A stretch of 64,000 bases of DNA from Naegleria gruberi (Eukaryota). Shown one piece after another: positions 26,865 through 49,445 of this stretch (positions are counted from its first letter, which is position 1; each line of letters opens with the position of its first letter). Location: NCBI GenBank assembly GCA_000004985.1, contig GG738869.1. One strand, 5' to 3'. The notes beneath the pieces are model-generated. The model was given only the letters and a program-made list of their open reading frames with translations, was not told the DNA's origin and did not search any database. The position numbers were made by a program, and so were the translations under genes.

Positions 26865-26897
26865 AATAAAAGGAATAATTTAAATTATAATAATTGT

Positions 26898-27659
26898 TTA
26901 ATATTTATTCCATTTAACAGATTCATCAAGCATAGAGCAGAAATAATCAAATTCAATTCTAATCATCTTCTCTTCAGGTTTGTAAATTAATTTAAATTGA
27001 TTAATTCCAAATTTCCATAAAATACCATCATGCTCCCATTTAAATGCATACCACTTATCACTAAACAAAGGAGGAAGGCTATAATTTCCAGCAAACAACC
27101 AATGATATGTTATCTTTGGAACTATTCTTCCTTCCCTTGCAATGCCACCCTCAATCAACATCTCTTCTTTTAAAATGCTATATGGTTTTGCCTTTTGTAT
27201 TTGATAATCAAAGAATAGCTTTGCTTCGTGATCATCTGTTACAGAAACATAATGTTGATGATGCCACTTGACATTATGGGTTGTATCTGGCTGAGCATTT
27301 CTAATAACTACCTCCTCAATAGTTCTCGGAAGTACCTTTAGGTATCTTGTTGCATAATATTCATCAGAATATTTTTCATCCATTATCTCACGCAGTGTTA
27401 TTGTTGGTAGGGAAGTATCAAAAAAGTATTCAAGTTGTTGTCTTTTCTCTAATGGTATGTTCACTTTCTTACTCTCTTCACTGCCTTCAAGAATGTTTGT
27501 TACTTGGCGTTTAGCTGTTTTCAAATCATCAACCTTCTCTACAACAAAACGTATTTTGTTTGTATTGTTATTCTTCTCCAACGATTTATTCATAGCTACC
27601 CTCTTACTTTTGCTCAACCTGTATACTTCAAACGTTACTTCTGTTTTGTTGGTGACCAT
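26898..27659 (-). CDS. Hypothetical protein (orphan), 253 aa
   Basis: Uninterrupted ORF with an ATG start; no recognisable motif. The Trp/aromatic-rich C-terminal half (WYAFKWEHDGILWKFGINQF) suggests a folded domain. Confidence 0.45.
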   Translation of the reverse strand: MVTNKTEVTFEVYRLSKSKRVAMNKSLEKNNNTNKIRFVVEKVDDLKTAKRQVTNILEGSEESKKVNIPLEKRQQLEYFFDTSLPTITLREIMDEKYSDEYYATRYLKVLPRTIEEVVIRNAQPDTTHNVKWHHQHYVSVTDDHEAKLFFDYQIQKAKPYSILKEEMLIEGGIAREGRIVPKITYHWLFAGNYSLPPLFSDKWYAFKWEHDGILWKFGINQFKLIYKPEEKMIRIEFDYFCSMLDESVKWNKY

Positions 27660-27779
27660 AGAAAATACTTGTTTGTTTTGTTTTGATTTTGTTGTTGCTC
27701 ATGTTGTTGTTGATATGTGGTGTTGTTGATGTTATTGTATTTTTTTTTACGTGAGTTTACAAATTGAAAAACAAGCAAG

Positions 27780-27794
27780 AATGAAACGCGGTGA
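27780..27794. repeat. Right copy of the inverted 15-mer (AATGAAACGCGGTGA) with patchy extension from about 27748
   Basis: It is the exact reverse complement of 18168-18182. It lies about 120-135 nt upstream of the minus-strand gene starting at 27659. Confidence 0.5.
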
Positions 27795-28045
27795 AATTAC
27801 GATCAGGATTTGAAAAAATATCAAAAAAGACGTTACATAACAAACAAACCTCGTAACCGATCATCAACACTTGTACAACTTGACTCTTAACAAGTATTGT
27901 TGTTGTGGGAAGATTTTAATCTTCGTAACAAACTTCATCATCATCCGACTTTTTTAAAAACTCTCTTATCATCATCAACAAGAAGTGATTTTGTACTAGT
28001 ATTGTATTTTGGTAGTTTAATTATAATACAAGAAGATTAACCATC

Positions 28046-30614: not shown

Positions 30615-33600
30615 ATGTCACAACATCAAACAACACTACAACTACTCATTTCCCTGTTTTTATTTTTGATTGTTGTTCAATGCACAGCATCAACAATGGA
30701 ATACAATACTAGTCTATCATTTGGTATTGATACACTGGTTGGCTATGATCCGAATAATGGAAATAATCTTCCTTCAATATATGCCAATTTGAATCCCAAT
30801 AATTTGACATTTGGCACGAATACAAAGATAATGTTCATGTATGATGGTGTTAGGAATGCCATCATGAAACTTGATCTGAAAACAAATCTGATTTCGAAAT
30901 TAATTGATTTAGAATATAGAGCGCTCTCAATATTAGAAACTAGAAATGGAATTTTATTTACAGATGCTCAAGGAAGGAATATTAAAATGTTGGCCAATGA
31001 TTCAATTTCTATTGTGGCAGGAACATTAACAACAGGATATTCAGGTTTGTTGATCTTGGGATGATTTTATTTTAAACTAATATTTGATATTAAAAGGGGA
31101 TGGAATTGCAAACGAAACGAAACTAAACTCTCCAAAGGGATTAATTGAGGATGGTAATGGAAATATTTATTTCATCGATTACTATAATTATAGATTGAGG
31201 AAATTATCAGGTAATATGATTTCAACAATAGCTGGTGATGGAAAGAATGAAAATAATGGAGATGGAGGATCAGCTCTAAAGGCCAACTTGAAAAATCCTT
31301 CCAATCTGGCACTAATTGACCACAACTTATACATTTTATGTGATACAGCAATAAGGAGAATTGATTTAATCACAAGTAAGATTTACAGTTTCTCAGTTGA
31401 AAGTCCATTCAAATTTACTGGAATTTTCCAAGCCAATGGAACAATTTTTGTTCACTCTGCTACTGCAATTGGTAAAATTCAATCCAATCAGAAGATTTCT
31501 ATCATTTCCGGATCAGCATCTGTATCGGGTCCTTCTGTAAATAATATTCCAGCAATTGATGCCTTATTCAAACAAATAAGTTCAATTGGGGTACTTTCGT
31601 CTGAGTTAGGGGATGTTATTTATGTTTATGATTCTTCAAATAATGATATTAGGGTTATTAATGAGACTCGTTTTATTAATCTGTTGGCTGGTGTTAAATC
31701 TTTGAAAGCAAATGTGGATTTATCGGCTCCTTATTTTATTTCTAATGATCCAATTGGACTTGCTGAGCTGATTAATGGTGATTTAGCCTTTTCGCATTCA
31801 GGTGGAATTGCCAAATATTCCAATGGATTGATAACAAACATAGTCGAATCTTCTAGCCCAATATTAGGAATTGCTTTCTATGAGAAAGAGGATGAGCTCT
31901 ATTATGTGGATTCGAACTCAAAAATTAAAAAGCTCAAAGATGGAGAAACGATACACGTAGCAGGAGCATCGAATGGACAAAATGCAGACAACATTCCAGC
32001 ATCAAAAGCATTACTTTCCTCTCCGTATGGAATTTCAATAGATCAAAGCAATGGAGACATTTATTTCACTGAACAATCAGGAAATAGAATACGAAAGATT
32101 TCTCAAGGAATTTTAACAACAGTTTGTGGAAATGGTCAAGCAGGAGATTCTGGAGATAAAGGGGAGTCCATTAAGGCACTAGTGAATAATCCAAGTGGAA
32201 TTCAGTTTACACAAAATGGAGAGATTTATTTCGCTGATTCAGGTAATAATCGTATTCGAAAGATTGTGAACGGTACCATTAACACAGTTGCTGGGGCAAA
32301 TGTTTGTAATGCTAAGGAAGGATCAAAAATGGCCACTGAAACGGTGTTGAGAAATCCAACTTTCGTTTATGTCTATCCGAATGGTGATTTTCTCATAACA
32401 GAAACAAACTCTCATTTGGTGAGAAGAGTTTCAAAAGGATTTATTTACACTATTGCAGGTACTGGACTATCTGGAGAGGGACCTGATTCAGTTCTGGCTC
32501 TTCAATCAGCTTTAACAAGTCCCAAGTCAATCATTCATTCATTTTCAATGAAACGAGTTGTACTAGTTGATAAGACCAATAGAGTGAGAATCTTAACTCC
32601 TTATTGTGAAGAGGGATATGTATTAGATGTTTATGGAGCATTCTGCATTCCTTTCTGTTTTGGAATTCTTGCAAATGATACAAATACTTGCTCTGGAAAG
32701 GGAGAATGTTCTTCATTCAACAGATGTAATTGTGCAGCATCCTATGGAGGAGAACAGTGTAATATTTCTAAATGTTTTGGAGTATTGGCAACTGACTCAA
32801 AGACATGCAGTGGAAGAGGAAAATGTTTGGATGGAATTTGTGATTGTGGAGGTAAATTCATTGGAACTAATTGTGAAATTCCCATTTGCTATGGAAAAGC
32901 TTCAAACGAGAGTGAAGTTTGTGGCGCTCATGGAAAATGTTCTAATTGGAATACGTGCGAATGTTTGGATAAGTATTCAGGCAGTTCGTGTCAATATCCT
33001 ATTTGTTTCGGCATTGCTTCAACCAGCCCTACTGTTTGCAGTGGAAGAGGAGTATGTACAGGACCAGATTCTTGTAATTGTCAATCTGGATCTTCTGGTA
33101 CTATTTGTGAAGTATCGAGAGAAGAAATTGACAAACAGAATCGAGAGAGAATAATCATAATAATTAGCTCAGTTTCAGGCTCCTTATTCTTATTATTCTG
33201 CTGTATTATTTGGACAATATCGGTATTCATATTCACCAATAGAAAGCTCAACCAACGACACAATGCAGAGCTAGATATGGAAAAGAAACTTCTTGAATTT
33301 GAGTTCAATGATTCACAATCTTCAGTCAGGGAATCAGTCTACCTCTTTTCACAACACCAGAAACCATACTTGATACCAATAGAAGATATTACATTTGTTA
33401 AAAAGATTGGAATTGGAGGATTTTCAAATGTTTATTTGGGAAAGTGGAACCAGTCGTTTGTGGCTGTCAAATCTGTTGAAAATCAAGACGATAGAGCTGA
33501 TGATGTATTTGAAAAAGAAGCACAAACTTTGTGTGCCCTCAAACATCCAAATATTATCACTTTTTATGGAATTTCATTTTCAGAGAGCAGAAAATTGCTG

Positions 33601-34371
33601 ATTGTGGAATATTTTGAAAAGGGAAGTTTAGATAAGTACATTGAAGCACTCACTACAAGGAAGATTAATTGCTCTCTAGAGAAAAAGATCAATTACTTGT
33701 TGCATATTGCTAATGGAATGGCCTATCTTCACTCGTACAAACCTAATCCTATTGTTCACAGAGATTTGAAACCAGCCAATGTTTTAATGTCAGAGAATGG
33801 AATTCTCAAGATATGTGATTTTGGATTGAGTAGAAGTTTGAATTACGAAACCAAGTCAGCCATGACATCCAATATTGGAAGTTTCTATTATTTGTCTCCA
33901 GGTAAGTTGTTTTTGGGTAGTTTATAATAATTTGATCTAAATCTGAAAGAAATGTTAAATGGAAGCAATCAAAAGAAATATGCAACTGCTTTGGATGTGT
34001 TCAGTTTTTCAATCATTGCTTGGGAATTACTTTTTGAAGAGGGAAATCCATACGATTATTCCAACAGAACAAAAGTATTTTATACAATGAATGAGGAAAA
34101 ACAGCTTCGATATGAAAAACTCAGTCCATTTAATGTTCCAACTCTTGTTTCTCAAGGCCTGAGACCACCAATTCCATTCGATTCGTCCGAAAGTTGTAAA
34201 GATTGGTGTAGCTTATTCGCAACCTCTGAAAAAGAACATTATCTCATTATTTTACAATTAACTGATTTGATTAAGCGTTGTTGGGATGAAAGACCCGAAC
34301 AGAGACCTTCATTTATAGAGATTGTGAACATATTATCTCAATTCGAAACTTATTTCTCACATGATTTGTAA
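30615..34371 (+). CDS. Receptor-type protein kinase, 3 exons, 1218 aa: signal peptide, NHL repeats, four tandem EGF-like Cys repeats, TM helix, TKL-like kinase domain
   Basis: Exons 30615..31044, 31097..33901 and 33950..34371. Introns 31045..31096 (GTTTGT..AAAG) and 33902..33949 (GTAAGT..GAAAG). The junctions restore TTGYSG|DGIANETKLNSPKG and YYLSP|EMLNG. NHL blades read NxIRKI...G.I.T.AG. Transmembrane helix IIIIISSVSGSLFLLFCCIIWTISVFIF. Kinase motifs GIGGFSNVY, VAVKSV, HRDLKPANVL and DFGLS. Confidence 0.85.
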
Positions 34372-34670: not shown

Positions 34671-36719
34671 TTAATCAGATAAATCTTCAAAGCATCTGCC
34701 TTCCTTTCTCATCAAATCAATGTGTGAATCAGCAACTCTGTCATCAACACCCTCAATATTCTTAATGATATCCTTGATGACATTGTAAGCTCTTGTTCCA
34801 AAACCTGAAACACCTCCACACAAATATAAATTTCCTTTTGATCTACTGAGCATTTGATAAACCTTTTCCTTGTTTTCATAAATGGCATCAGCAATCATCT
34901 TTCTGTCAGTTCCAGAGTAAGCAAAATGAGATTCAGAAATGAGACCATCCTTAACAGCTTGTTCAATTTCCTTCTTGTAAATAACTTCTTCAGGTCCTCT
35001 AACACCATAGAACAAAATTGAAGGACCGAATTTGATGTTTGGATTTCTCATTTGTTGAACTCTTCTTTCATCAATAAATCCTCTGAATGGAGCAATACCT
35101 GTACCACCAGCAATACAAACGATTGGTGTTTCAGGATTTTCTGGAAGTCTGAATGAAGAAGTTCTGATAACAACAGGACATGCAATAGATGGTTTGCACT
35201 CTGACAAGTAGTTGGAACACAATCCAAAGAATGTCTTGGTATTATCAATTGGCTGTACAAGTGGACCGTAGGTAATTCTCAAAATTTTTCCTTCTCCTCT
35301 CTTCTTTCTTTCTTCATTTTCTAATCTAGATGAAGAAATTGAATAGTATCTTGGTTGATTCTTTGGTAAGATACCAATGAGATCTTGCCATGTCACCTTA
35401 ATGGATGGGAATTTCTCTAACATATCTACAATATTTAACATTTTGTTCTTGACTTCAGTCAAGTATTTTTCACTCTTCCAAGATTCCAATGTAGCTTTTT
35501 CTTCGGCATTGGTTGCCTTGTCTGCCAAGAAACCTAATAAAGAAGGAGAAACGACACCATTCAAATCAAAGAATTGAGACATGGCCTGATATAAAGTAAT
35601 TGGGCTATCTCTAGTGGCAATAAATGGTGGCAATTCAATACTACATGTTGGTGTTTCAAGAGTAAAGATAATTTCCTCCATAGGCAAATCCAATTTCAAG
35701 AAACTTTCCAATCTTTTAACAAGAGATGATGGATTGGTTGGGAAAATGCAAATATGGTCACCAGTCTCATAATCTATTGGAGTTCCTTCAATATCAAACT
35801 CAATCTCAAGACGTAATCTATTGGATTCTGGACATAAATTCTTTACGGATTGAATCTTCAATGGGAATGGGTTCTTTGGTGAAACTGGTGAGCTGGCATC
35901 ATAGGAACGAACAAATTGTCTTAACTTGTCTCTATATTTGGCTTTATCTAGAAGACGAAAAAAATGCTTGCCATTTGTTGTCACACCTTCTCCCATTTGA
36001 CTTGTTTCACTTTGAGATGGTACTTGGCATGAAGATGCAGTAGATGAATTGGATGTTTCATTTTCCTTTTGTTTCAAGAATTCAATAAATTCATTCTTCC
36101 AATTTTCAAAATCAGTTTCAATACCTTCTTCACCACCATCGTCTCCTTCACCTCTCTTGAATTGTAAATCACTTCCCAAATCCTTTAAACGTTGTTCCAT
36201 TCTTTTACCAACAGCTTGATATCTTTCAGGGAAGTTGGCAGAATTTCCCAAACCAAAAATTGCATAATTTGGTGCATTGTTTTTGAAATCCAAACTCTTA
36301 GTATTGTCACTCATAAAAAATTCATAAAATGGTTTAGCATTGTCAGTTGGTTGACCTTCACCGTAGTTTGACATGATAAATAATACAATATTATACAAAT
36401 CATTTTTTTGTAAGCCAAATGACAAGGCCCTTTCTGGTTCAATATCACTCAAATCAACAACTTTAACACTTGACAAGAATGATGGATTTTTCTCCATCAA
36501 TTCGCTCTTCAAACCTTCAGCAAACATTTGTGCAGTTCCCGTTTGTGACCCATAACAAATTAACAAGTTTGTCTTGGACATGTCGACAAGACTTGCATGG
36601 AACTGTCTCATACATGCTGCTTTAAAAACACTTGTATTGGTATTCATTCTATGTTGACCAGAGCATGCATTGCGAAGTAATACACTGCAAGCATTCATTT
36701 TCAGTTTATTCATCATCAT
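34671..36719 (-). CDS. Diflavin NADPH-dependent reductase (cytochrome P450 reductase-like: flavodoxin + FAD + NADPH domains) with a basic N-terminal extension and no membrane anchor
   Basis: The track start at 36725 is GTG; the first ATG is at 36719. LLICYGSQTGTAQ is the FMN site. RYYSISSS is the FAD site (RxYS motif). CIAGGTGIAPFRGF is the NADPH site. About 50 N-terminal residues before the flavodoxin domain contain almost no acidic residues. Confidence 0.8.
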   Translation of the reverse strand: MMMNKLKMNACSVLLRNACSGQHRMNTNTSVFKAACMRQFHASLVDMSKTNLLICYGSQTGTAQMFAEGLKSELMEKNPSFLSSVKVVDLSDIEPERALSFGLQKNDLYNIVLFIMSNYGEGQPTDNAKPFYEFFMSDNTKSLDFKNNAPNYAIFGLGNSANFPERYQAVGKRMEQRLKDLGSDLQFKRGEGDDGGEEGIETDFENWKNEFIEFLKQKENETSNSSTASSCQVPSQSETSQMGEGVTTNGKHFFRLLDKAKYRDKLRQFVRSYDASSPVSPKNPFPLKIQSVKNLCPESNRLRLEIEFDIEGTPIDYETGDHICIFPTNPSSLVKRLESFLKLDLPMEEIIFTLETPTCSIELPPFIATRDSPITLYQAMSQFFDLNGVVSPSLLGFLADKATNAEEKATLESWKSEKYLTEVKNKMLNIVDMLEKFPSIKVTWQDLIGILPKNQPRYYSISSSRLENEERKKRGEGKILRITYGPLVQPIDNTKTFFGLCSNYLSECKPSIACPVVIRTSSFRLPENPETPIVCIAGGTGIAPFRGFIDERRVQQMRNPNIKFGPSILFYGVRGPEEVIYKKEIEQAVKDGLISESHFAYSGTDRKMIADAIYENKEKVYQMLSRSKGNLYLCGGVSGFGTRAYNVIKDIIKNIEGVDDRVADSHIDLMRKEGRCFEDLSD

Positions 36720-37115
36720 CTTCACTTAGTGGATGTAGTAACAGATGTGTGTGTGGATGTATTTTTTTTGAATCTTTAATTGTTCCTTCATCAATTATTG
36801 ATTCTTTTCATATAATATTATCATCGGGATGATGATTCATTCCTTTTGAGCAATTATGAGAATATTCAAATGCATGTATGTGTTTTATCTGAACGCACTA
36901 ATGGATTCTGAACTCTATTAATTTCTTTAATTGGCACTCGTAAAATCTTTAAATCTGTAGAGGGAGATGAAGAAAAAACAAGTCCCGTTACCCCTCATCT
37001 TCAATTTATTACCATCTCTTGTGTGAGTCATAGGCTGTCATCCGTTCAAGCAATTCTAATGAACAATGTTGTAGAAACAAGCAAAAATGAAGACCATTAA
37101 AGGAAACTAGTAATT

Positions 37116-37126
37116 TTTGGCGGGAG
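37116..37126 (+). promoter_or_regulatory. E2F-consensus-like motif TTTGGCGGGAG in the reductase/HCP divergent intergenic region
   Basis: Exact 11-mer, also present at 15064-15074. It matches the textbook E2F site TTTGGCGGGA. It is GC-rich within AT-rich intergenic DNA. Function is not demonstrated. Confidence 0.2.
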
Positions 37127-37359
37127 GTGTATGAAAGCTCTATTGGTACGCACAAATGGGTTTACCACCAATTCTGAACAAAAAAACATTGAAAAATAAT
37201 AAAACTCACAAATGGTGAATCTATTTCAATTAGACAATAAAGTAGCTGTCGTTAGCTGGATGTGTCGTAAGAGAATCTTTTGTTGGCTTTAAATATTCAC
37301 ATTTCTTCTTGTCACTTTGATCAACTAATAACAAAAAAACAACAACACACAACAACAAG

Positions 37360-39297
37360 ATGATCAGACAATCTGCTTCTAAGCTTTTCTCTAGAGTTGC
37401 TTCCAAATCCATGCAAGTTAATGCTGGAAAGAATTTGGCTGCCTGTTCCATGATCAAGATGAATCATCAAACAACCACTCAAGCTAGAATGAATTTCTCA
37501 CAACAATACAATATGAATAGATCTGATAAGATGTTCTGTTTCCAATGTGAACAAACACAAAATGGTACTGGTTGCACAACTGTTGGTGTTTGCGGTAAGA
37601 CACCATCAGTTGCTGCATTGCAAGATTTAACCATTTATCAAACTCGTCAATTGTGTGCTTTGGCTACTTTGGCCAAGAGACAAGGATCTGTTGTTCCTTC
37701 ATTGATGGAAAAGGTTGATGACTTTGTTTTGAGAGCCATGTATAGTACTTTGACTAATGTCAATTTTGATGAACTCAGATTTGTCGAATTTTTGAAGGAA
37801 GGTTCTGAATTGACTCAACAAGTCAAGAAGGAAATGTTAGGTGGAAAGATTCCACAAGAATTCTCTGAATTGCTCACTGTCACTGAAACTGATGCTCAAT
37901 TCGATGCCATCTTGAGTCAAGCTACTTCTGCCACAGATGAAGCTACTGGAAAATTGATTGATATGGGTAAATCTGTTGGTGTTCAACCACATCACAAACA
38001 TTATGGAGCTGATACTAATGCTCTCCGTGAATTGCTCCAATATGGTCTCAAGGGTTTGTGTGCTTATACTAAGGAAGCTTCTCTCTTGGGTAAGAATGAT
38101 GCTGCTGTTGTCAATGAATTCATTAGAACTGCCATGTGTACTTTGGCTGGTGTTTCACCTGATGGTAAGGTTGACCCATACAATGCTAATGATATCATTG
38201 GTATGGCATTGAAGTGTGGTGAAGTCAACGTTAGAACTATGCAATTGATGGACGAAGGTGCTTTTGAACGTTTTGGTCAAATGGCTCCAAACAATGTTAG
38301 AACTACTCCACTCCCAGGTAAATCAATCTTGGTTTCTGGTCACGATATGGGTGATTTGTTGGCCATTTTGAAGCAAACTGAAGGAAAGGGTATCAATGTT
38401 TACACTCACGGTGAATTGTTGCCAGCTCATGGTTATCCTGAGCTCAGAAAGTTCAAACACTTAGTTGGTAACTATGGTGGTGCTTGGCAACAACAAAAGA
38501 TTGAATTCTCCAACTTTAAGGGTGCTATTGTCATGACTACTAACTGTATCATTGAACCAAGAAAGCAATATAAGGATAGAATCTTCACTACCTCAGTTGT
38601 TGGTTGGCCAGGTGTCACTCACATTAAGAATAGAGATTTCTCTGCTGTTATTGAAAAGGCTTTGGCTACAGAAGGTTTCCCAGAATCATTTGCCAATGAA
38701 AAGGTTGAACATGTCACAACTGGTTTCGGTCATCGTACAGTTTTGAGTCTTGCTGATGTTATTGTTAATGCTGTTAAGAGAGGTGATATTAAGAGATTCC
38801 ATCTTATTGGTGGTTGTGATGGTACTGAAGGTGAAAGATCATACTATAAGAATATTGCTACATCCCTTCCAAAGGATAACGTTATCCTCACTTTAGGTTG
38901 TGCCAAGTACAGATTCAACAAGATTGACTTTGGTACTATTACTACTCAAGATCCAAAGACTAATTCTGATGTTGCCTTGCCAAGATTGTTGGATGTTGGT
39001 CAATGTAACGATGCTTATGGAGCTGTAGTTATTGCTAGTGCTTTGGCTGAAGCTTTCGGTACTAAGGATCTCAACCAATTGCCACTCAACTTTGTTATTT
39101 CTTGGTTCGAACAAAAGGCTGTTGTTATTTTCTTGACAATGCTCCACCTTGGTTTGAAGAATGTCAGAATTGGTCCAAACTTGCCTGCCTTTATTCCTCC
39201 ATCCACTCTCCAATTCCTCGTTGAAACCTTCAAGTTACATCCAATCAATGCTAAGGATCCTGTTGCTGATATGGAAATGATGCAAAAGGGACTTTAA
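37360..39297 (+). CDS. hcp: Hybrid-cluster protein (prismane protein / hydroxylamine reductase family) with a 57-aa N-terminal extension
   Basis: 645-aa ORF. The N-terminal Cys motif CFQCEQTQNGTGCTTVGVCGKTP (Cx2Cx8Cx5C, 37531-37600) has the same spacing I recall for Desulfovibrio-type class 1 HCP. Conserved GHDMGDL, TNCI and IGGCDG blocks. Strongly biased codon use (GGT/GCT/ACT/AAG/TTC), similar to the ribosomal protein gene in this window. Confidence 0.9.
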   Translation: MIRQSASKLFSRVASKSMQVNAGKNLAACSMIKMNHQTTTQARMNFSQQYNMNRSDKMFCFQCEQTQNGTGCTTVGVCGKTPSVAALQDLTIYQTRQLCALATLAKRQGSVVPSLMEKVDDFVLRAMYSTLTNVNFDELRFVEFLKEGSELTQQVKKEMLGGKIPQEFSELLTVTETDAQFDAILSQATSATDEATGKLIDMGKSVGVQPHHKHYGADTNALRELLQYGLKGLCAYTKEASLLGKNDAAVVNEFIRTAMCTLAGVSPDGKVDPYNANDIIGMALKCGEVNVRTMQLMDEGAFERFGQMAPNNVRTTPLPGKSILVSGHDMGDLLAILKQTEGKGINVYTHGELLPAHGYPELRKFKHLVGNYGGAWQQQKIEFSNFKGAIVMTTNCIIEPRKQYKDRIFTTSVVGWPGVTHIKNRDFSAVIEKALATEGFPESFANEKVEHVTTGFGHRTVLSLADVIVNAVKRGDIKRFHLIGGCDGTEGERSYYKNIATSLPKDNVILTLGCAKYRFNKIDFGTITTQDPKTNSDVALPRLLDVGQCNDAYGAVVIASALAEAFGTKDLNQLPLNFVISWFEQKAVVIFLTMLHLGLKNVRIGPNLPAFIPPSTLQFLVETFKLHPINAKDPVADMEMMQKGL

Positions 39298-39712: not shown

Positions 39713-42700
39713 ATGGCGAAACGATCGTTCACTGATTTGCTAATTGTTACCTTGACTTCCGATGATCATTTCGAAGATATCACCATACCAGAGCACGATT
39801 GTGATTTATTGGCATTAAAACATTTTCAAAAAGTTGCAGCAGAACGTATCGAAAGAAATGAACAAATTTATTCTCATGTTTCCCATCTAAAATCAAGAAA
39901 TCACTCAAATAATTATGAAAAAATTACTAAAAATCCATTTCCGGACAATGATTGTAAATTAGCTTTTTTCAAGGTTTTAAAGTATGATGGCTTGTTGTTG
40001 CAGTTTGCATCGAATGAATTGAGAAATGATCGTGATGTTGTTTTGAGAGCTGTTAAAGAAAATGCAGGTTCTATCGAGGTGGTGAGTGAGGAATTGAGAA
40101 GTGATAGGGAATTTGTGGAGAAGGTTGTTATGATTGCTAAAGATAGAACGAGTTTGTCCACAAAAAGTTTTTTCAAATTTCTTGACAAGTTTCATGATGA
40201 TGAGTTGATTGTTAGAAAGGTGGTGGAGAAACATGTAAATTCTCTCGAGTTTGTATCACCAAGATTGAGAAATGATAGGTAGGTTGTTTAAATATCATTA
40301 CCAAAAGCAAATTCATACACAGAGAGATTGTTTGGAATGCTGTTAAAAGAAATGGATCATCTCTTCAATTCGTTCCAGAACATTTGAAAGATAGAGAATT
40401 GGTTATGCTTGCTGTGAAAACTGATTCCCAGGCACTTCTATTTGCACCAATAGAGTTTTTGAAAGATAAAGAAATTATTTCAAGAGCTGCTAAATTATCA
40501 GGACTTGCTATTAAATATGCCCACACAGAACTTAAAAACGACAGAGAGTTTGCTTTAGAGATGGTAAAGTTGAGAGCACTTGGTTATAATTATCTTTCGG
40601 AAGATCTAAGAGGAGATCGGTAAGTTGTTTGTGAAACTGTTGCAACAGTAATGAACGGAAAATTAGGGAAATTGCATTGGCAGCTATGAAGTCAATGCCA
40701 ACTTGTCTAAGAATGGCACCTAATCACATCAAAGATGATTTTGAAATTGTTTCCATTGCGGTTACGAAAAATTTATCAGCTCTTGTGTTTTCCTCACAGA
40801 GATTCAAAGATGATACAGACTTTATCTATAACTGTGCTTCAACTGCAAGTCAAATTATTTATTTTCTGAATAATCATGAATCTCTATTAGTAACTAATCG
40901 AGATTTCTGTTTACGGCTCATAGAAAAGAGTTGTGGATATGATTGTTTTAGAAATGCTCGAGATTTTGTGAAATTGGATAAGGAACTATGTCTGAAATTC
41001 ATACAAATACATCCAGATTGTTTGGAAGATGTTAAATGTGAAGATATTCTAAATGACAAACAACTCTTAATGGATTTATTGCCACACAGTGAAAAAATTC
41101 TTCTTCAAATTCCAAATGAGCTTTGTAATGATAGAGAACTCATGATGTGGGCATCGAAAATTCATGACAATGCTCTAAAATTTGCCTCTGAAGAGCTTTG
41201 TGCTGATAGAGAGTTTGTAAATGAGGCATTGCTTTGTGATTTTGGTAATTTTGAGTATTTATCAGAGGAGTTGAGAAGTGATAGAGAGTTAGTGGAAAAT
41301 ATTGTAAAAATTGATGGTTTCAATGTTCAATTTGTACCAGAATTATTTAGAAACAATAGAGAACTAATCATTACTTCAATCAGAAATGCATTCTCAGATA
41401 TTTCTCCATACTTAGGATATCAGTTGAAGGAAGATAGAGATATTATTTTGGAATCTGTGAAAAGATCTGGCATTATAGAAAATCTTCTACACGAGTTTAG
41501 AGATGATAGAGAAATTGTAATGATGGGAATTCAACAATTTGGACCAGAATTTCGATATGCTTCCAAGTTTTTACGTAGCGATAGAGAATTGGCATTAATT
41601 GCCATTAGAAACTTGTGCACTTTAGAGCATATTCCCAAGGAAATATTAGATAGAAAACTTGCCTATGAAGCTTGTAAACGTTCGGCCTTTAATTTAAAAT
41701 TTGCCTCTGAGTATAGAGAGGATGAACTAATTGTTCTTTCTGCATTAAGCAATGAAAATGGGGGTTTATATACCAAATATGTCGGTGAGCGGTTGAAGAA
41801 TGACAGAGATTTTATATTGAAAGCTTCCAAACTTCAACCTAGTATTATTGCTCATATTTCGACTGAGCTTCTCCAAGATAGAGAAATAATCATAAATGCA
41901 CTTTCGCATGATGGAAATGTACTTGCTCATCTACCAGAGGAATTCAAGAGTTGTAGAGAATATGTGGAAATAGCTGCTAACTCAAACCCACATTCACTTA
42001 AATACGCATCAGAAGATTTGAAGCAGGATCCAGAGTTGTTATATAAGGCAATTGCAACAGGGATTGCCAACTCTTTAGTTTCTGAACAATTTTTGGAGGA
42101 TGCTGATGAGTCAACTATACAAAAATGTATTGAAAATGGAGTTTCACTTCGTAGTTTTCCTAAGTCTTTAACCAGTAATAGAAACTTAGTTATTAAGGCT
42201 GTAAATATTAATATGGAGAATCTTAGATATGCATCCAAGGATCTAATTAACAAGGAACTGATTATGGAAATTTCACCAAAAAATTTTGATATATTACTAC
42301 TTCCAATCAAATGGAGAAGTGACAAAGATATTGCTTTAAAGGCTTTGGAAATGAATGGAAAATCAATAATATATATTTCTGATGAGTTGAAAAATGAATT
42401 TAAGCACAACAAGGAAATCCTATTGAAAGCAATGAAAACAGATAGCATTCCATTCCTTTATGCGAGCGATGATTTACAAAACGATCGTGATTTTATTTTG
42501 GAATCTGTTTCAACAAATGGCTTGGTATTGAGATATGTTGCATCCCATTACAAAGAAGATAGGGAAGTAGTTTTAAAGGCAGTTAAAAATCATGGAAATT
42601 CAATTCGTTACGGAGCCAGACATTTCATGAATGATAGAGAAATCATGTGGAATGCAGTTCAAAACTTGGGAGCCAAAATTCTTCCGTGCAATCCATTAAT

Positions 42701-43019
42701 TTATGGCTCCTTTGAAATACGAAGTGACCGTGAGCTAGTTCTAGAAGCCGTTCGCCATGATTATCACTCCCTTGAATATGTTGTCATTGAATTATTAAGC
42801 GACGAAGAATTCATGACGAAATGCGTGGAAATTAATATTAATTCTCTAATTTATGCTCACTACCAATTAAGATACAATGTAGATTTTCTGAAACGATTGA
42901 ACAAGACAGATATGATCAGAGAAGACACTGATTTACACAACAAAATAGATATTGAAGGACTATTAGGATACAATCCAAAACTTAAAGATTTGAATATTAT
43001 TGATAGAGCTGAAATTTAA
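39713..43019 (+). CDS. DUF4116-repeat protein, 3 exons, 1071 aa
   Basis: Exons 39713..40278, 40323..40619 and 40667..43019. Introns 40279..40322 (GTAGGT..ACAG) and 40620..40666 (GTAAGT..TTAG). The junctions restore LRNDR|EIVWNAVKRNG and LRGDR|EIALAAMKS. Dozens of copies of L(R/K)xD(R/K)E(I/V/L)xLxA(V/I)xxNGxxLxYAS, which I recognise as the DUF4116 repeat. Confidence 0.8.
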
Positions 43020-43134
43020 CACAAACTATCACGTGATACCAGCTGGTAATGAGTTTACTAACAATGTTCCCATTTTCCAAGTTGAGTTTGGAATGTTGTC
43101 TTAACAATGAAACAGAAAAATATGTAAAAATTAT

Positions 43135-45111
43135 TTACTCTCTACTCTGTATCATGTTATTTACAATACGTTTGTAATTTGCTCTTGATAGAGAGACCAA
43201 ATCATCCAAACCAAATGAATAACTTGAATTATTATCGAGACAATATTCCATCATGCTAATGAGTTCCAAAATCTGTTCTCTAAACATTGGTATACTCACA
43301 ACAGTATCCTTCTTTGTTGTTGCATGTAAGGAGAATCTGGAAACGAGTGTAGAACGACATATTATAGTAATAGGAATTGTGGTTGACTTGATGAGTTTGT
43401 TTAGCTCTTTTAACACTCTCTTACAATCCATTGATGTTGGAAATAAGAACATGGCCCAATATAACTGAAAGTGTATACTCTCCTTTAACAATCTAGATTT
43501 GGATGTCAGATCTTGAATTGCTTGTTTTGTAACTTGGTGATAATCTAATGTATTGTCTTTCAGTACATTCATCCATCCAATTAACAACTTAGTGGCAAAC
43601 AGAATTGGAGAATTCCCAAAATTGAGCATTAAGAAATTCAAATCATTTCGAGCCAAATGAAATTCTGCTTGTTGGGCTAGAAAGATTGATCTGTTTAGAT
43701 AGGCATTGAATCTATCTCTAGCATGAGTTGCATTTGTACATGCCATATCAAAATATTGTCTAGCCCTTACATAATTTCCATTCAGTTCCATAACAAAAGC
43801 AACATTGACCATTGCACTAATGTACCTAGAATCTATTCGAATGGCATTTAGAGAATTATCCTTAGACTGTTTCCTCAGATTTAGAATTTCAGTTGCTTGC
43901 TCCAAATTAGACCTTGCCTCAAGTTGACGAGAAAGAGCCAACTGTACAAGTGCCTTATTATTGAGAGCTCGTGTATCATTGGGATTTAAACTATCTAATA
44001 CATACTGAAATTTAGAAGCAGCCTCATGAAAGTTTTCTGAAAACAGTAAATAATAGCCATGAAATTTGTATGAAAAGCTGCGAACATCATCCCAAATTCC
44101 TTTGACGATTGATTGACACATACGAACCAAGGAGAATTCAACTTGGTTATATCGAATTTGACCAACCTTTGTAACTTGAGAAAATTTGTTTTCACTCTTT
44201 GCTAATTGTCCAACAAAGTCAACAAGGTCTGGATTCGGATTGTTGGTGGGGTTTGTTTCAGCTCGATCTTGGAACATGTAGAGCCGAATAATAATTTCTT
44301 CCATAGTTTCGTATTGAGGAATTCTAGTTTCTTGACTTTGAAAACAACTCCATAACAATGGTACAAGATTACTCTCCTCCAATCTGTGTCTAGCTTCTTC
44401 AGAATCATTTTCGTATAGAATTGCCGCAATTTCATCATTCTCCAAGGTTGAAAATGTTTGATTTAGATTTCCTGTAATTAATTGAAATAAAATTGACCCC
44501 AAGGCAAAGACATCATAGGTTTCACTACTTCCTTCACTTGGATAGTTGTTTCCACAACTGTTTGAAAACTCATCATCATCATCAAGAACATCTCCAACAT
44601 GTTGCATCTTTTCAAAATCTGCAAGGACTATTCTAATCACATCGTTTTCATAGCTTTCAACAAGAATATTCTTCAATGTTATATCTCTGTGCACAATGTT
44701 GTTATGATTCCTCAATTCGACAAGAGCACTCGCTAGTTGATAACCTATTTGATATATGATTGGAAATGGAAGTAATCTCATTTGTTTAGTTGTCTCATCA
44801 AACAACATTGAATACAGATCACACTTATAGAATGGCATTTCAATTACCAGTGCATTGTTTTCAAAGTAAGATCGGTAAATTTTCACAATGTTTGGATGGT
44901 CCACCTTTTCTATCATTTCTGCAATTTCCTTTTGTTTTTGTAAATGTTCATCAAGTTTCTCACATTTCATATTATTTTCTTCCCTCTCAATTCTATAAAC
45001 CTTATTTGTGGATATTTCACGAATGACGTGGATTAGAATAGGGGAACGACGACTAGTGTGCAGTAATTGATAGTTGACTTTGTCTTTTTTCCATTTTTCA
45101 GTAATAGACAT
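43135..45111 (-). CDS. Kinase-like (probable pseudokinase) domain fused to a TPR-like helical repeat region
   Basis: 658-aa ORF. HRDITLKNILV and LADFEKM (DFE instead of DFG). No GxGxxG loop. VYRIE sits where VAIK is expected. The C-terminal half has TPR-like repeats (YYLLFSENFHEAASKFQYVL, NGNYVRARQYFDMA). Confidence 0.65.
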   Translation of the reverse strand: MSITEKWKKDKVNYQLLHTSRRSPILIHVIREISTNKVYRIEREENNMKCEKLDEHLQKQKEIAEMIEKVDHPNIVKIYRSYFENNALVIEMPFYKCDLYSMLFDETTKQMRLLPFPIIYQIGYQLASALVELRNHNNIVHRDITLKNILVESYENDVIRIVLADFEKMQHVGDVLDDDDEFSNSCGNNYPSEGSSETYDVFALGSILFQLITGNLNQTFSTLENDEIAAILYENDSEEARHRLEESNLVPLLWSCFQSQETRIPQYETMEEIIIRLYMFQDRAETNPTNNPNPDLVDFVGQLAKSENKFSQVTKVGQIRYNQVEFSLVRMCQSIVKGIWDDVRSFSYKFHGYYLLFSENFHEAASKFQYVLDSLNPNDTRALNNKALVQLALSRQLEARSNLEQATEILNLRKQSKDNSLNAIRIDSRYISAMVNVAFVMELNGNYVRARQYFDMACTNATHARDRFNAYLNRSIFLAQQAEFHLARNDLNFLMLNFGNSPILFATKLLIGWMNVLKDNTLDYHQVTKQAIQDLTSKSRLLKESIHFQLYWAMFLFPTSMDCKRVLKELNKLIKSTTIPITIICRSTLVSRFSLHATTKKDTVVSIPMFREQILELISMMEYCLDNNSSYSFGLDDLVSLSRANYKRIVNNMIQSRE

Positions 45112-45236
45112 GATGATTTTTGTTTAGTGTGTAAGTTTTGCATGATGGTTGTTTACAAGGAAAAGACCAGATCAAAATCCAAAATGGAATTATTCCAAAA
45201 TAATAATTTTAAAATTTCATATCCAAGTTAACTCGT

Positions 45237-46739
45237 TTATAATACAATTTGTACAAATTCATTGATCAAGTGACTGTCATGCATTTTGTATCTTGTCATG
45301 GTATCATTTCCAATTCTTTCCAATTCAACTAAGCAATCATCTAAATCCTTCTTTGTGTGAGCACTAGAAATGCAGAATCTTACTCTGGCCAAAGCAGTTG
45401 GACAAGCAGGAGCACCAACAATAACAATGGCAATTCCTCTCTCGAGGCAAATTCTAGAAAATGCAATCAATTTTGTCAAGTGATAAATCATCATGACGAT
45501 AACAGGTGAATCTCTATCTGAAATAATTTCAAATCCAAGTTTTTTCAAAGAATCCCCAAAGTAATTGGTATTGAAACTCAATTGGTCTAATTTTTCCTTT
45601 CCAATACTTGTGTTATCTTCACCCATAATGCAAGTGAGAGCTGACAATGCCTGTTGGGCACAAGGAATTGATATTGAAGTACCATAAATCAATCCAAAGC
45701 AAGATTTTTTCAAATAATCAATGACCTCAGCATCTCCAGAAATGTATCCTCCCACAGAATTAAAACTCTTTGTAAAGGTTCCCATCAAGATGTCAATATC
45801 CTTTGGGTCAACATTTTGCTGTTCACAAACACCTCTTCCAGTTTTACCCAAAGCTCCACACGAATGAGCCTCATCCACATAGAGATGGAACTTGTATTGC
45901 TTCTTCAATTCAACTACTCTTTTCAAATTGACAATTTCACCTTCCATACTGTAAATTCCCTCAACAATGACAATAATCTTCTTCCATGGTTTTCTATTTC
46001 CTGGTCCTGGTTGACCATCAATAATGTTCTTTCTCAATAATTTCTCCAAATGATCCATATCATTGTGTCTGAAACGAAGAACTGTTGGAGTACCTTCTGA
46101 AGCTCTAGTTCCATTCACAATACTTGAATGGTTCAAAGAATCGGACAAGATGAGACAATCTCTAGTTGGAGCCAATAATGGAATAACTGTAGAATTGGTT
46201 GCAAATCCCATGGACACAACCATTGCACTTTCCTTTCCAATAAATCTAGCAACTCTCTTTTCCAATTCTCTATGAATTGGAGTATAACCATATTCAGAAT
46301 ATGCAGAACCAGAAGCAACACCATATTTATCAAAACTCTCCAAAACCTGATCAACTACATGTGAAGGACTTTCAGAAAATCCTAGATAATTATAACTAGC
46401 CATATTTAAACAACTTTTCAATTTACCATTCGTGTCAATATTTGCAACTCTTTCAGTGTTTGGATTTCTCATCATGACTTGAATATGTGAAGATGGTCTG
46501 CTTGCAATCGGTCTGTGGAAACAATCAGAACATTTCCCATAGATTCTTCTCACAAAGAAATCATCATCTACGAGGGGTTTCTTACTAGCTTCATCAGGAA
46601 ACCTTTCATAATTTGTTTTATCGATCGGACCAATGAAGAGAATATGAAACAAATCGCTGATCTTTCCCAATATAAATACAATTAGTAGATTTGTATGGGT
46701 TAGAAATAAAGTCAACGGGGAAGGATCACAATGCGTCAT
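45237..46739 (-). CDS. LCB2: Serine palmitoyltransferase subunit 2 (alpha-oxoamine synthase family, PLP-dependent)
   Basis: 500-aa ORF. NMASYNYLGFS, HSSIV, DEAHS and the PLP-lysine block GTFTKSFNSVGGY are present. The N-terminal hydrophobic PLTLFLTHTNLLIVFILGKISDLF resembles the SPT2 TM region. A possible extra 56-nt upstream exon (46887..46942) would join via a TACTAAC-containing 140-nt intron (46747..46886). That model keeps the frame but is unproven. Confidence 0.8.
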   Translation of the reverse strand: MTHCDPSPLTLFLTHTNLLIVFILGKISDLFHILFIGPIDKTNYERFPDEASKKPLVDDDFFVRRIYGKCSDCFHRPIASRPSSHIQVMMRNPNTERVANIDTNGKLKSCLNMASYNYLGFSESPSHVVDQVLESFDKYGVASGSAYSEYGYTPIHRELEKRVARFIGKESAMVVSMGFATNSTVIPLLAPTRDCLILSDSLNHSSIVNGTRASEGTPTVLRFRHNDMDHLEKLLRKNIIDGQPGPGNRKPWKKIIVIVEGIYSMEGEIVNLKRVVELKKQYKFHLYVDEAHSCGALGKTGRGVCEQQNVDPKDIDILMGTFTKSFNSVGGYISGDAEVIDYLKKSCFGLIYGTSISIPCAQQALSALTCIMGEDNTSIGKEKLDQLSFNTNYFGDSLKKLGFEIISDRDSPVIVMMIYHLTKLIAFSRICLERGIAIVIVGAPACPTALARVRFCISSAHTKKDLDDCLVELERIGNDTMTRYKMHDSHLINEFVQIVL

Positions 46740-47170
46740 TGAAAAACTGTACTGTTAGTAATATATATTTGTTATTATTGTTAAAAACTGTTGAAGAATA
46801 TTTTGAGTGGTTGTTTTTGTGGCTGTTTTGTGTGTGGCTATGAGGAAATGCACGGTGAGTGTGTTGACCTTTTTTTTGAGTAATACTTGAATAAGATTCG
46901 ATGAGCGAATTGAAATATTTTTGAGAATCGAATCTTTCTCATTATCCTTCAAGAAGAAGAGGAGTTGCTGCTTGTCGCCGTTTGTTCGTTTATTGCTGTT
47001 GGTGTTTGGGCAATTGGAAGATAGAACGAACTTCGGGTGTACACCATGTCGTTGAATGGTTGTGTTTTCCTTTTAGATGGAATTTGATCATGCAATTTCC
47101 TGAACACTCCCTGACCAAAGGTAAGTTTTAGAAGAGTTGTTACGTTTGATTTTTTTGAAATGGATGTGAA

Positions 47171-47251
47171 GCAGGGGTTCCCGAGTGGTCAAAGGGGGTA
47201 GACTCAAGTTCTACTGCGCAAGCTTCGTGGGTTCAAATCCCACCTTCTGCA
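47171..47251 (+). tRNA. tRNA-Leu (anticodon CAA), class II with long variable arm, no intron
   Basis: Acceptor stem GCAGGGG pairs with CTTCTGC (two G-U pairs). Anticodon stem-loop GTAGA CTCAAGT TCTAC. T arm GTGGG TTCAAAT CCCAC. Discriminator A. Followed by a T6 run. Confidence 0.9.
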
Positions 47252-47253
47252 GC

Positions 47254-47259
47254 TTTTTT
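47254..47259 (+). terminator. Pol III T-run terminator after tRNA-Leu
   Basis: TTTTTT begins 3 nt after the tRNA 3' end. Confidence 0.6.
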
Positions 47260-47438
47260 ACAAAATCAACTTATAAGATGTATAAACTTTTTTTATATCT
47301 GCATGTTGTATTTGATGTCTACCATCATATCTGAAAGAATCTATTTTTTATTTACTATTTTAGTTCGAAGAATAGCCTCAGATCAAAAACGTTGATATTT
47401 CACTTGAAAAAATCTCATCACTTTACAATTTTAAAAAA

Positions 47439-49445
47439 ATGTCTCAACAACCTTCAAGCTGCCTTTTATTGTCTCTACCCGACGAATGTCTATCACTGGT
47501 TTTTTCCAACCTCTCCATACAAGAACTATTCTTCCGAGCCAGATCTACCTGTAGAAATTTTCATGAAATTATTGTGGGTATCGCTTCACCATTTCAACAA
47601 AAGGAAAACAAGAATTGCTTGATAAGAAATCAAAAGTTGAAAATTTTGTGTTTAAATAATAATCCAATCAGATTAAAATCACTGTGGGAGTGTATTAGAA
47701 AGGGTTATTTTGAAGAATCAGTAACTAAATTCAGTATTACTGCTAGAAGAACTGAATTGTTGGAAACTTTGCTTGACAAGAATGATTTCTTTGTAAAATA
47801 CTTTTCAAATTTGGAATGTTTAAAATTTGGATCAAAGAATTTGTGCAGTGAACATATTTCTGAATTGTTTAATCCTGATAATTCCAAACATTTAAGAAAG
47901 TTAACAATATTGAAGTTGGCAAATAATAATTTGGATATCAAAACAGCAAGGAGCATAGCCAAGTGTGAAAACTTAACTAATTTGACATCACTAGATTTGA
48001 GCACTAATGTTATGGAAGGTGACTGTATAGAATTACTAACGAGTCCATATTTAGAAAAGTTAACAAATCTCAATTTGAGTGGTAATTATATTACAACAAT
48101 ATTATGGAAAGAAAAATTCAAATTCAAAAACTTGGAAAAGATATCAATTGAAAATCCATTTGAGTTCGTTTTCAATAATCAATCTGAAACATATTTATTT
48201 AGCAAGCTCACATATCTAGATGCTTCTGACTCAATTGAGGAGGAAAAAAGATTCTCTGCTATGAAAAAGTTTGATTCCATACCAACAATCACATATTTGA
48301 ATTTAAATTATGTAGAATTAACACAAGAATCCATACTATCCCTTATTGCAGATAGTAGATGCCTTTCCAAGTTGGAAAATTTAGAATTAATCGGTTGCTC
48401 ACTTACTGGAACTGGATTTGCAATCTTGACTAGAAGCAGATATTTATCAAATTTGAAAAATCTGGTTGCTGAAAGTAATGACATTGATTTTGAAGGTTTT
48501 GTACACTTTGGAACAGATTCGTTTACTTTGAAGAATCTAATTACTCTAGATTTAATTTCAAATGACTTTAGCGTGAAATCTTATGAATATTTATTAAGAG
48601 AACCCTCTTTAACAAAATTGGAGAAACTTTATTGTGATAATGTTGATGAGGTTGAGGCAAAATACATTGCAGAACACCAAGAAAATATTACAGGAATAAC
48701 TGATTTGGTATTTACTGGCTATTCTGAAATGGAAGATGACAGTATGAAATATTTGGCCATGTTAAAATTACTCAAACTCAAGAAATTGAAATGCACTGGC
48801 ACAGGAGGCACCTTTTCAGGATTGATTTACTTTTTAGAAAATTGCACTTGTGAAAATTTGGAAACATTAGAATTTGGTAGGGTAAAATTTACAAATATTG
48901 ACGAGCAAATGAAGGCCATCTCATCACTACTCTCCAATAAGCACTTCTCCAAGTTGGAAACCCTAACTTTGGATGGACTTGCTGATGAACCTTTGAGAAT
49001 GTTATTGGATAATATGGACGACGATAAGTTATTGAGCAAACTTTCAACTTTATCAATTTCAGAAATTAATGACGATGCATTCAGAGTTCTAACAAGTCAT
49101 CCAAATAGTTCCAAATTGAAAATGCTTGCTCTTATGGAAGGAGAGCTTTCAGATGAGTCAATTGAACATTTTGTTAATAGTCCACACTTTCATGAGCTTA
49201 ATTATTTGGATTTGATTGGAACTGAAATATCACGTGAATCGAGTAAGCGTATTGCTCACAGTACCAACATTCCAAATCTCGAATATTTATTTGGTTCTTT
49301 TATTTTGGCTGATTTCGAACAGGAAACTAATTTACCGAAACTTTCTCATCTCTATTTAACAGAAAATGGTTTGGAAACCCCAAAAGATGATGATGATGAT
49401 GGATTGTATGAAGCAACAGAAGTGGAAGATCAACTTTCAAATTAA
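47439..49445 (+). CDS. F-box / RNI-type leucine-rich-repeat protein
   Basis: 668-aa ORF with aaaaaaATG context. The N-terminal LLSLPDECLSLVFSNLSIQELFFRARSTCRNFHEII is F-box-like. About 15 LRRs follow (LTNLTSLDLSTNVMEG..., LTNLNLSGNYI...). Confidence 0.7.
   Translation: MSQQPSSCLLLSLPDECLSLVFSNLSIQELFFRARSTCRNFHEIIVGIASPFQQKENKNCLIRNQKLKILCLNNNPIRLKSLWECIRKGYFEESVTKFSITARRTELLETLLDKNDFFVKYFSNLECLKFGSKNLCSEHISELFNPDNSKHLRKLTILKLANNNLDIKTARSIAKCENLTNLTSLDLSTNVMEGDCIELLTSPYLEKLTNLNLSGNYITTILWKEKFKFKNLEKISIENPFEFVFNNQSETYLFSKLTYLDASDSIEEEKRFSAMKKFDSIPTITYLNLNYVELTQESILSLIADSRCLSKLENLELIGCSLTGTGFAILTRSRYLSNLKNLVAESNDIDFEGFVHFGTDSFTLKNLITLDLISNDFSVKSYEYLLREPSLTKLEKLYCDNVDEVEAKYIAEHQENITGITDLVFTGYSEMEDDSMKYLAMLKLLKLKKLKCTGTGGTFSGLIYFLENCTCENLETLEFGRVKFTNIDEQMKAISSLLSNKHFSKLETLTLDGLADEPLRMLLDNMDDDKLLSKLSTLSISEINDDAFRVLTSHPNSSKLKMLALMEGELSDESIEHFVNSPHFHELNYLDLIGTEISRESSKRIAHSTNIPNLEYLFGSFILADFEQETNLPKLSHLYLTENGLETPKDDDDDGLYEATEVEDQLSN

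Follow-up and report, generated by a model that had tools for sequence, protein, structure and literature searches.

Which enzyme delivers electrons to the hybrid cluster protein (HCP) of a mitochondrion? The question is raised by a locus of Naegleria gruberi NEG-M, located in a 64,000-nucleotide stretch of contig GG738869.1 (assembly GCA_000004985.1; GC content ~33%), hereafter called the window, in which an HCP gene and a gene encoding a diflavin reductase are transcribed divergently. The anatomy of both genes is clear, the cofactor motifs of their products are intact, and the same head-to-head pair is present in four deeply diverged eukaryotic lineages. Both proteins are mitochondrial in N. 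gruberi, as determined by published isotope tag-based localization of organellar proteins (LOPIT) (PMC8134430). These results suggest that the two genes probably specify a mitochondrial redox module, in which the diflavin reductase would be the dedicated electron donor of HCP. An HCP served by a dedicated reductase is already known, and the new element is thus a new type of reductase paired with HCP in the mitochondrion.

Anatomy and localization of the two proteins

Judged from its sequence, the product of the plus-strand gene is a class-I hybrid cluster protein of full length, with intact motifs. The Pfam Prismane family (PF03063) covers residues 58-628 (482 bits, E-value 2e-144), and the top matches in the PDB were the HCPs of E. 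coli, Methanothermococcus, and Desulfovibrio (435-469 bits), with 469 bits for E. coli Hcp (7DE4) and 442 bits for D. vulgaris HCP. The cysteines of the N-terminal cluster lie in CFQCEQTQNGTGCTTVGVC (residues 60-78), which has Cx2Cx8Cx5C spacing and no class-II insertion. All seven hybrid-cluster ligand motifs were found by alignment to 7DE4, and we take the ligands known from the D. vulgaris structure (one His, two Glu, and four Cys, including the persulfide Cys) to lie on these motifs.

The effective number of codons (ENC), which is lower when codon bias is stronger, was 31.2 for HCP, the lowest among 19 open reading frames (ORFs) tested. The gene of ribosomal protein S8e gave 26.6, and most other ORFs gave 37-46; the codon preferences of HCP and S8e were correlated (r = 0.87). 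The original prediction had described the HCP gene as being as biased as the ribosomal protein gene, which is roughly correct. No intron was found in either the HCP gene or the reductase gene of N. gruberi.

The minus-strand gene corresponds to N. gruberi XP_002677035.1 with 46 extra N-terminal codons. Its closest relatives of known structure are NADPH-cytochrome P450 reductases (CPRs), with ~30% identity, an E-value of ~5e-64, and 220 bits, compared with 99 bits for MTRR; nitric oxide synthase reductase and CysJ also scored much lower than CPR. The order of the domains and the fold family are those of microsomal CPR (POR), and motifs for flavin mononucleotide (FMN), flavin adenine dinucleotide (FAD), and NAD(P)H are found in both. 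However, the two enzymes differ in several respects. Microsomal CPR has a membrane anchor, and evident anchors were seen in the canonical CPR homologues of the same alignment, whereas the Naegleria enzyme is mitochondrial and carries a putative presequence, and no hydrophobic anchor was detected in its first 90 residues (best 19-residue Kyte-Doolittle mean, 0.61). Its FMN loop, FGLGNSANFPERYQ, is two residues longer than that of canonical CPR, and CPR motifs GPGTG and CGDAxxMA are replaced by AGGTG and CGGxxGF. The C-terminal tail reads RCFEDLSD instead of DVWS, a Ser standing in the column of the FAD-stacking Trp. Finally, AYSGTDRKMIAD occupies the 2'-phosphate site (AFSR..KVYVQ in CPR), where Arg is changed to Gly and Tyr is lost; the residues of this site presumably have the roles assigned to them by established structural work on CPR. 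Because the stacking Trp and the 2'-phosphate Arg are both lost, the enzyme may accept NADH, by analogy with the known behavior of CPR mutants, although this is a weaker suggestion.

These analyses bear out all that could be checked of what had been predicted for the pair, namely the class-1 cysteine motif of HCP, a CPR-like FMN/FAD/NADPH reductase (recovered as three Pfam domains in the expected order) lacking the microsomal anchor, and N-terminal extensions of about 50-57 basic, nearly acid-free residues on both proteins. The gene coordinates, the divergent orientation, and the 640-bp spacer were exact to the base.

With regard to the extensions, residues 1-57 of HCP comprise four Arg, five Lys, one Asp, and no Glu, and residues 1-53 of the reductase comprise three Arg, four Lys, one Asp, and no Glu; the remainder of each protein is net acidic. 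Only three of the 34 ORFs of the window combine the absence of acidic residues with a net charge of +5 or more over the first 40 residues: HCP, the reductase, and a zf-CHCC protein that is also mitochondrial-looking. The start of HCP, MIRQSASKLFS, resembles MIRQAASSLLS at the start of a TargetP-positive mitochondrial MGM101 paralogue of N. gruberi. The reductase extension ends in R-Q-F followed by H-A, an R-3-type motif, and an R-x-F ahead of the mature domain is retained by all Naegleria reductase orthologues, as in the N. lovaniensis model (RLF), P0122 (RLF), and P0121 (RGF). These features suggest that both extensions are cleavable presequences.

Both extensions are largely missing from the RefSeq models, which begin at Met52 of HCP and Met47 of the reductase and thus omit positions 37360-37512 and 36582-36719 of the window, respectively. 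The published molecular weights of 65.211 kDa (HCP) and 71.859 kDa (reductase) match these internal starts exactly, and PMC8134430 Suppl. Data 2 gives RefSeq sequences identical to those of the two proteins of the window. At this base composition, the chance of finding an open frame of 46-51 codons upstream of an annotated Met is ~2-3% per gene. Moreover, the extensions are open and similarly composed in every Naegleria or Willaertia orthologue with a full-length model: they were found in N. lovaniensis, L002 (a related Naegleria from metagenomic data), and P0122, and the HCP of Willaertia has one as well. In the HCPs of N. lovaniensis, L002, Willaertia, and two more distant contigs, L005 and L092, described below, the extension is 48-70 residues long and has the same composition. 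The reductase model of Willaertia (P0123) begins inside the flavodoxin domain, and its 5' end is probably mis-annotated.

The suggestion that the two proteins might be targeted to mitochondria was borne out by the published LOPIT mitochondrial proteome of N. gruberi. There, 59 unique peptides covered 79% of HCP (Horvathova et al. 2021, PMC8134430), and 41 unique peptides covered 55% of the reductase, listed as XP_002677035.1 (PMC8134430 Suppl. Data 2). Both show the same fraction enrichment as bona fide mitochondrial proteins and are listed in adjacent rows of one functional category (PMC8134430). The log2 intensities were 29.7/31.6/33.7 for HCP and 25.2/27.3/29.3 for the reductase (PMC8134430), indicating that HCP is very abundant, with a ~20-fold excess over the reductase. 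TargetP classified both RefSeq models as "other" or cytosolic (PMC8134430), because these models are truncated at the N-terminus and have lost their presequences. Two N. gruberi gene models are thus corrected here, whose truncation had concealed the targeting signals.

The localization also bears on the idea that the reductase is an orthologue of a cytosolic or endoplasmic reticulum diflavin enzyme (microsomal CPR, NDOR1/Tah18, or MTRR) and that its extension is never translated. The best PDB matches are indeed CPRs, albeit at ~30% identity, and the RefSeq model, which begins at Met47, does not include the extension. However, 41 peptides of the reductase were recovered in the mitochondrial fraction, the extension is open with a composition kept in orthologues, the anchor and the canonical Trp and Arg are lost, MTRR scores 99 bits against 220 for CPR, and anchor-bearing canonical CPRs group separately, so that this explanation is hardly credible. 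Orthology with NDOR1 or MTRR was rejected on the basis of the MTRR and CPR scores and of the mitochondrial assignment by LOPIT, NDOR1 not being compared by sequence. Orthology of the reductase with a known cytosolic diflavin enzyme of these two types, named as a refuting condition with the original prediction, was thus not borne out, given the bit score for MTRR and the organellar localization.

Recurrence of the pair and the reductase subfamily

The head-to-head pair is also found in N. lovaniensis and L002. Distant relatives were obtained by an exhaustive HMMER search with the reductase, followed by inspection of the contigs carrying them. In all three non-Naegleria contigs with enough upstream DNA, an HCP gene was located on the opposite strand, head to head with the reductase gene. 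The first (L005; GC 0.57) carries an HCP gene with several introns and a 494-bp spacer. The second (L009/L010; GC ~0.69) also shows the head-to-head pair, with an upper bound of 1442 bp for its spacer. The third (L092) is diatom-like, with a 586-bp spacer, and its reductase groups with proteins of Mayamaea, Stephanodiscus, Cyclostephanos, Thalassiosira, Cylindrotheca, Seminavis, Cyclotella, and Skeletonema. The spacers of the paired loci other than that of N. gruberi measure 494-615 bp.

Identity among the four paired lineages is 43-51% for the HCPs and 26-33% for the reductases, and the flanking genes are wholly different between loci. This divergence is far past the distance at which eukaryotic gene order usually survives. 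The N-terminal extensions of both partners are again basic and poor in acidic residues in L005 and L092. The idea of an HCP/reductase module, which had been put forward from the N. gruberi locus, therefore gains from the same divergent pair in the diatom-like contig and in two other distant contigs. In addition, the HCP gene of Cyanophora paradoxa was reported to be fused to a "sulfite reductase" gene (PMC8003979, table footnote d). Because the Joint Genome Institute (JGI) annotates the present reductase subfamily as "sulfite reductase alpha subunit-like flavoprotein", this fusion may be a further case of linkage between HCP and the diflavin subfamily.

Two features of the L009 locus were also recorded. 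The N-terminal cluster motif of its HCP (2086-3798, minus strand), the partner of reductase P0267, is lengthened by an insertion of 10 residues (Cx2Cx18Cx5C). The P0267 model is without its first exon(s), and an FMN-domain-like fragment lies at ~4906-5000.

The features of the reductase subfamily were deduced from alignments of 20 and then 48 homologues, to which further members were added. Its members have presequence-like N-termini, no anchor, and an FMN loop of the form GLGNSxxFPERY with a two-residue insertion; AGGxG replaces GPGTG of CPR, CGG[AV][SA]GF replaces CGDAxxMA, the AFSR..KVYVQ 2'-phosphate site is lost, and the C-terminus reads R-x-x-E-D-[LV]-[AS]-D where CPR has ..DVW(S). CGG[AV][SA]GF, AGGxG, and the C-terminal ED[LV][AS]D are common to the reductases of all paired loci. 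The subfamily includes Lapot gusevi (Rhizaria) and many diatoms, and presequence-like N-termini are likewise found in a related group whose C-terminal residue is Phe. In a neighbor-joining tree (100 bootstraps), Naegleria grouped with P0241 at 96% and the other 17 ED[LV][AS]D members at 68%, and the anchor-bearing canonical CPRs fell into separate groups. The membership of these reductases in one subfamily is thus suggested by shared motifs and HMMER ranking rather than by a resolved tree.

An origin of the pair from a bacterial operon was also considered and found no support in the sampled prokaryotes. No relative with the motif YxCGG[AV][SAH]GF[GA] was found among 185,579 prokaryotic species, each represented by one genome, and no diflavin-like gene lies within 8 kb of HCP at any of the 80 closest prokaryotic loci. 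Because both searches were empty, the pair seems to have arisen in eukaryotes rather than by transfer of an operon. When JGI metagenome contigs were scanned with a C-terminal alignment of the subfamily, only CysJ-type (..RYQRDVY) and BM3-type (..DVWAG) bacterial loci were returned, without any HCP within 10 kb, and the scan was uninformative on the subfamily. In an HCP neighbor-joining tree (100 bootstraps), deep nodes were unresolved and eukaryotes were not separated from bacteria.

Taken more broadly, the anchor-less, presequence-bearing diflavins with an ED[LV][AS]D tail might constitute eukaryote-specific "HCP reductases", that is, the missing donors of mitochondrial HCPs, encoded with HCP in a bidirectional two-gene cassette that dates from a very early eukaryote or was passed between eukaryotes, and perhaps running on NADH. 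We propose this extension only tentatively.

A candidate electron donor for mitochondrial HCP

In the proposed module, a cleavable presequence would direct the import of each protein into the N. gruberi mitochondrion. HCP, with its N-terminal [4Fe-4S] cluster and its [4Fe-2S-2O] hybrid cluster, would be the catalytic and very abundant part. The divergently transcribed reductase, from a eukaryote-only subfamily devoid of the CPR anchor, the FAD-stacking Trp, and the 2'-phosphate Arg, would be its dedicated electron donor. NAD(P)H would give electrons to FAD and then FMN in the reductase, from which they would reach the [4Fe-4S] cluster of HCP and then the hybrid cluster, which would reduce nitric oxide (NO) to N2O and/or hydroxylamine to ammonium. 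The module would thus follow the logic of Hcp-Hcr in E. coli, with Hcr replaced by a non-homologous, CPR-derived flavoprotein.

Bacterial Hcr is an NADH-dependent protein that contains FAD and a C-terminal [2Fe-2S] cluster and is co-transcribed with hcp. In both E. coli and Naegleria, an HCP gene adjoins the gene of a pyridine nucleotide-dependent reductase (dedicated in E. coli, and probably so in Naegleria), the hybrid-cluster motifs are conserved, and the chemistry, NO to N2O or NH2OH to NH4+, is presumed to be shared. However, Hcr is an FAD and [2Fe-2S] protein, whereas the Naegleria partner is a three-domain FMN/FAD diflavin enzyme without an Fe-S domain; the cysteine spacing is of class I in Naegleria HCP and of the longer class-II type in E. 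coli Hcp, as seen by alignment; and the Naegleria genes are divergent monocistrons with mitochondrial products, in contrast to the hcp/hcr operon. The Naegleria pair is therefore analogous, and not homologous, to bacterial Hcp-Hcr.

Several points weigh against a dedicated module. Direct electron transfer, the substrate, the coenzyme preference, and the co-regulation of HCP and reductase are features that we infer. The pairing within Naegleria is ordinary synteny, and its three genomes count as one observation. In Willaertia magna, of the sister genus, the reductase and HCP genes lie on different contigs; the pairing is thus kept in N. lovaniensis and L002, but its absence from the closest other genus, taken narrowly, agrees with one of the refuting conditions named with the original prediction. 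The three Naegleria spacers could not be aligned, shared no more 8- to 10-mers than shuffled sequences, and revealed no conserved motif. Among the contigs with related reductases, L004 (a transcript), L007, L011, and L093 were left out of the pairing count, as the sequence upstream of the reductase gene is shorter than 450 bp (L011 and L093 are subfamily members, and L007 is a Phe-tailed relative), and the L009 HCP model has no presequence. The node uniting Naegleria and P0241 with the other ED[LV][AS]D reductases was unsupported in the neighbor-joining tree. Finally, several P450s are present in the N. gruberi mitochondrion and are possible clients of a CPR-like enzyme.

The P450s lead to the main alternative, in which the reductase would act generally in the mitochondrion as an NAD(P)H diflavin reductase for acceptors such as P450s, cytochrome b5, or heme oxygenase-type proteins, and would lie next to HCP as a result of shared regulation, for example in a hypoxia or nitrosative-stress regulon. 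CPR-family enzymes are, as a matter of general knowledge, promiscuous donors. The P450s of the mitoproteome are CYP12-like and CYP24-like (PMC8134430), but adrenodoxin reductase, the usual donor of mitochondrial P450s, was found in the same mitoproteome, so that these P450s already have their canonical donor. The subfamily has also lost the anchor and the Trp, features tuned to the reduction of membrane P450s. GiOR-1 of Giardia provides a precedent for an organellar diflavin reductase without a known acceptor, and Willaertia keeps its reductase unlinked to HCP; against this, HCP is the only neighbor that recurs in the four deeply diverged lineages. We thus regard a general reductase as unlikely.

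Willaertia also enters into a second alternative, namely that the adjacency is neutral, either inherited synteny or coincidence, without any functional link. The loss of linkage in that genus, the synteny of the entire block inside Naegleria, and the failure to find a conserved spacer motif are all consistent with such an origin. However, the chance that two given genes are divergent neighbors is ~1 in 10,000 per genome, and the arrangement is found in four lineages whose orthologues are 26-51% identical and whose flanking genes are entirely different. As the products of both genes are, in addition, located in one organelle, a neutral adjacency is very unlikely.

We therefore retain the reading in which the reductase is a dedicated partner of HCP, and compare it with what was reported for other eukaryotes. 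Mitochondrial HCPs were documented or predicted in Acanthamoeba, Chlamydomonas, Nyctotherus, and others, and HCPs with N-terminal extensions are also present in Echinamoeba, Salpingoeca, Pigoraptor, Gefionella, and streptophyte algae. The HCP of Acanthamoeba castellanii has a presequence, is mitochondrial, and is induced by anoxia, and no partner is given for it (Cell 2026, PMC13632651). Chlamydomonas HCP2 bears a presequence, was found in mitochondria, and was tied to anaerobic or nitrogen-oxide metabolism; for the chloroplast HCP of Chlamydomonas, ferredoxin was proposed as the donor. No reductase is named in these studies for Acanthamoeba HCP or for HCP2, whereas the Naegleria candidate is both gene-linked and co-localized with its HCP. 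A literature search for a diflavin, P450 reductase, or other reductase partner of HCP gave no relevant report, and the link is undescribed in this literature; nor was a reductase named for any eukaryotic HCP in the publications retrieved.

Giardia GiOR-1 is, like the Naegleria reductase, a soluble diflavin reductase inside a mitochondrion-related organelle, here the mitosome, with no assigned physiological acceptor. However, it is Tah18-like, has a ~30-fold preference for NADPH, and has no reported linkage to HCP; the two enzymes were compared by description only. The hydrogenase of N. gruberi is reportedly cytosolic. The mitochondrial list nevertheless includes the [FeFe]-hydrogenase, with a TargetP value of 71 (PMC8134430 Suppl. 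Data 2).

An ancient presence in mitochondria is now argued for a set of anaerobic enzymes to which HCP belongs, and a linked, co-localized diflavin reductase provides a concrete candidate electron donor for a eukaryotic HCP. If this assignment is true, the CPR family would gain a new functional branch, in which the nucleotide site is unusual, and the locus would be a rare example of a gene pair conserved across eukaryotic supergroups.

Feature coordinates and neighboring genes

Table 1. Features of the HCP/diflavin reductase locus, in positions of the window.
Feature	Position	Strand	Description and basis
Diflavin reductase coding sequence	34671..36719	-	682 aa plus stop from first ATG; ORF and Pfam
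C-terminal tail RCFEDLSD	34674..34697	-	Homologue alignment; FAD-stacking Trp of CPR (DVWS) replaced
NAD(P)H-binding domain	34803..35108	-	NAD_binding_1 (PF00175), residues 538-639; motifs AGGTGIAPF and LCGGVSGFG
FAD-binding domain, including RYYSISSS	35310..35882	-	FAD_binding_1 (PF00667), residues 280-470; rat and plant CPR alignment
FMN (flavodoxin-like) domain	36093..36554	-	Flavodoxin_1 (PF00258), residues 56-209
Reductase presequence-like extension	36582..36719	-	Residues 1-46, outside RefSeq model; composition; no transmembrane segment
Divergent spacer, putative bidirectional promoter region	36720..37359	.	640 bp between reductase and HCP starts
HCP coding sequence	37360..39297	+	645 aa plus stop; ORF and Pfam Prismane; RefSeq model begins at Met52
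HCP presequence-like extension	37360..37530	+	Residues 1-57; composition; kept in relatives
Cx2Cx8Cx5C motif, N-terminal [4Fe-4S] cluster	37537..37593	+	Class-I spacing; direct reading and regular expression
Hybrid-cluster ligand motif region	38335..39117	+	SGHD, THGE, TTNC, GGCDG, GCAKYRF, GQCND, WFEQK

The genes around the pair form a block that is syntenic between N. gruberi and N. lovaniensis and consists of WD40, Brix, Lipase_3, reductase, HCP, Ion_trans, S8e, and zf-CHCC genes. The reductase locus of Willaertia magna retains the ancestral Brix, Lipase_3, and WD40 neighbors. Their order and orientation in Willaertia (L003, L008) are unlike those in Naegleria, indicating that the region was rearranged and that HCP moved to or from another contig.

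In N. gruberi, the block shared with N. lovaniensis is broken by insertions at ~18000-28000, 31084-34371, and 39713-55000. The first has a GC content of 0.275 and contains a Tet/JBP-like oxygenase ORF (21297-22385) and a 909-aa ORF (24135-26864) without a Pfam match. The second is an NHL/EGF/kinase gene: an NHL/teneurin-EGF receptor-like kinase is split over 31084-33927 and 33952-34371 on the plus strand, and its kinase domain resumes 24 bp further on in the next ORF, suggestive of a frameshift or a short intron. In the third, DUF4116-repeat, kinase, aminotransferase, and F-box/LRR genes are clustered.

The zf-CHCC protein (58588-59046, minus strand) is probably NDUFS6-like. Its presequence starts with MFSLQRTSRIVSSIVKNN, and its first 40 residues contain no acidic residue. 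Its gene is the third mitochondrial-looking gene of the window and is syntenic with positions 15755-16174 of the N. lovaniensis contig L001.

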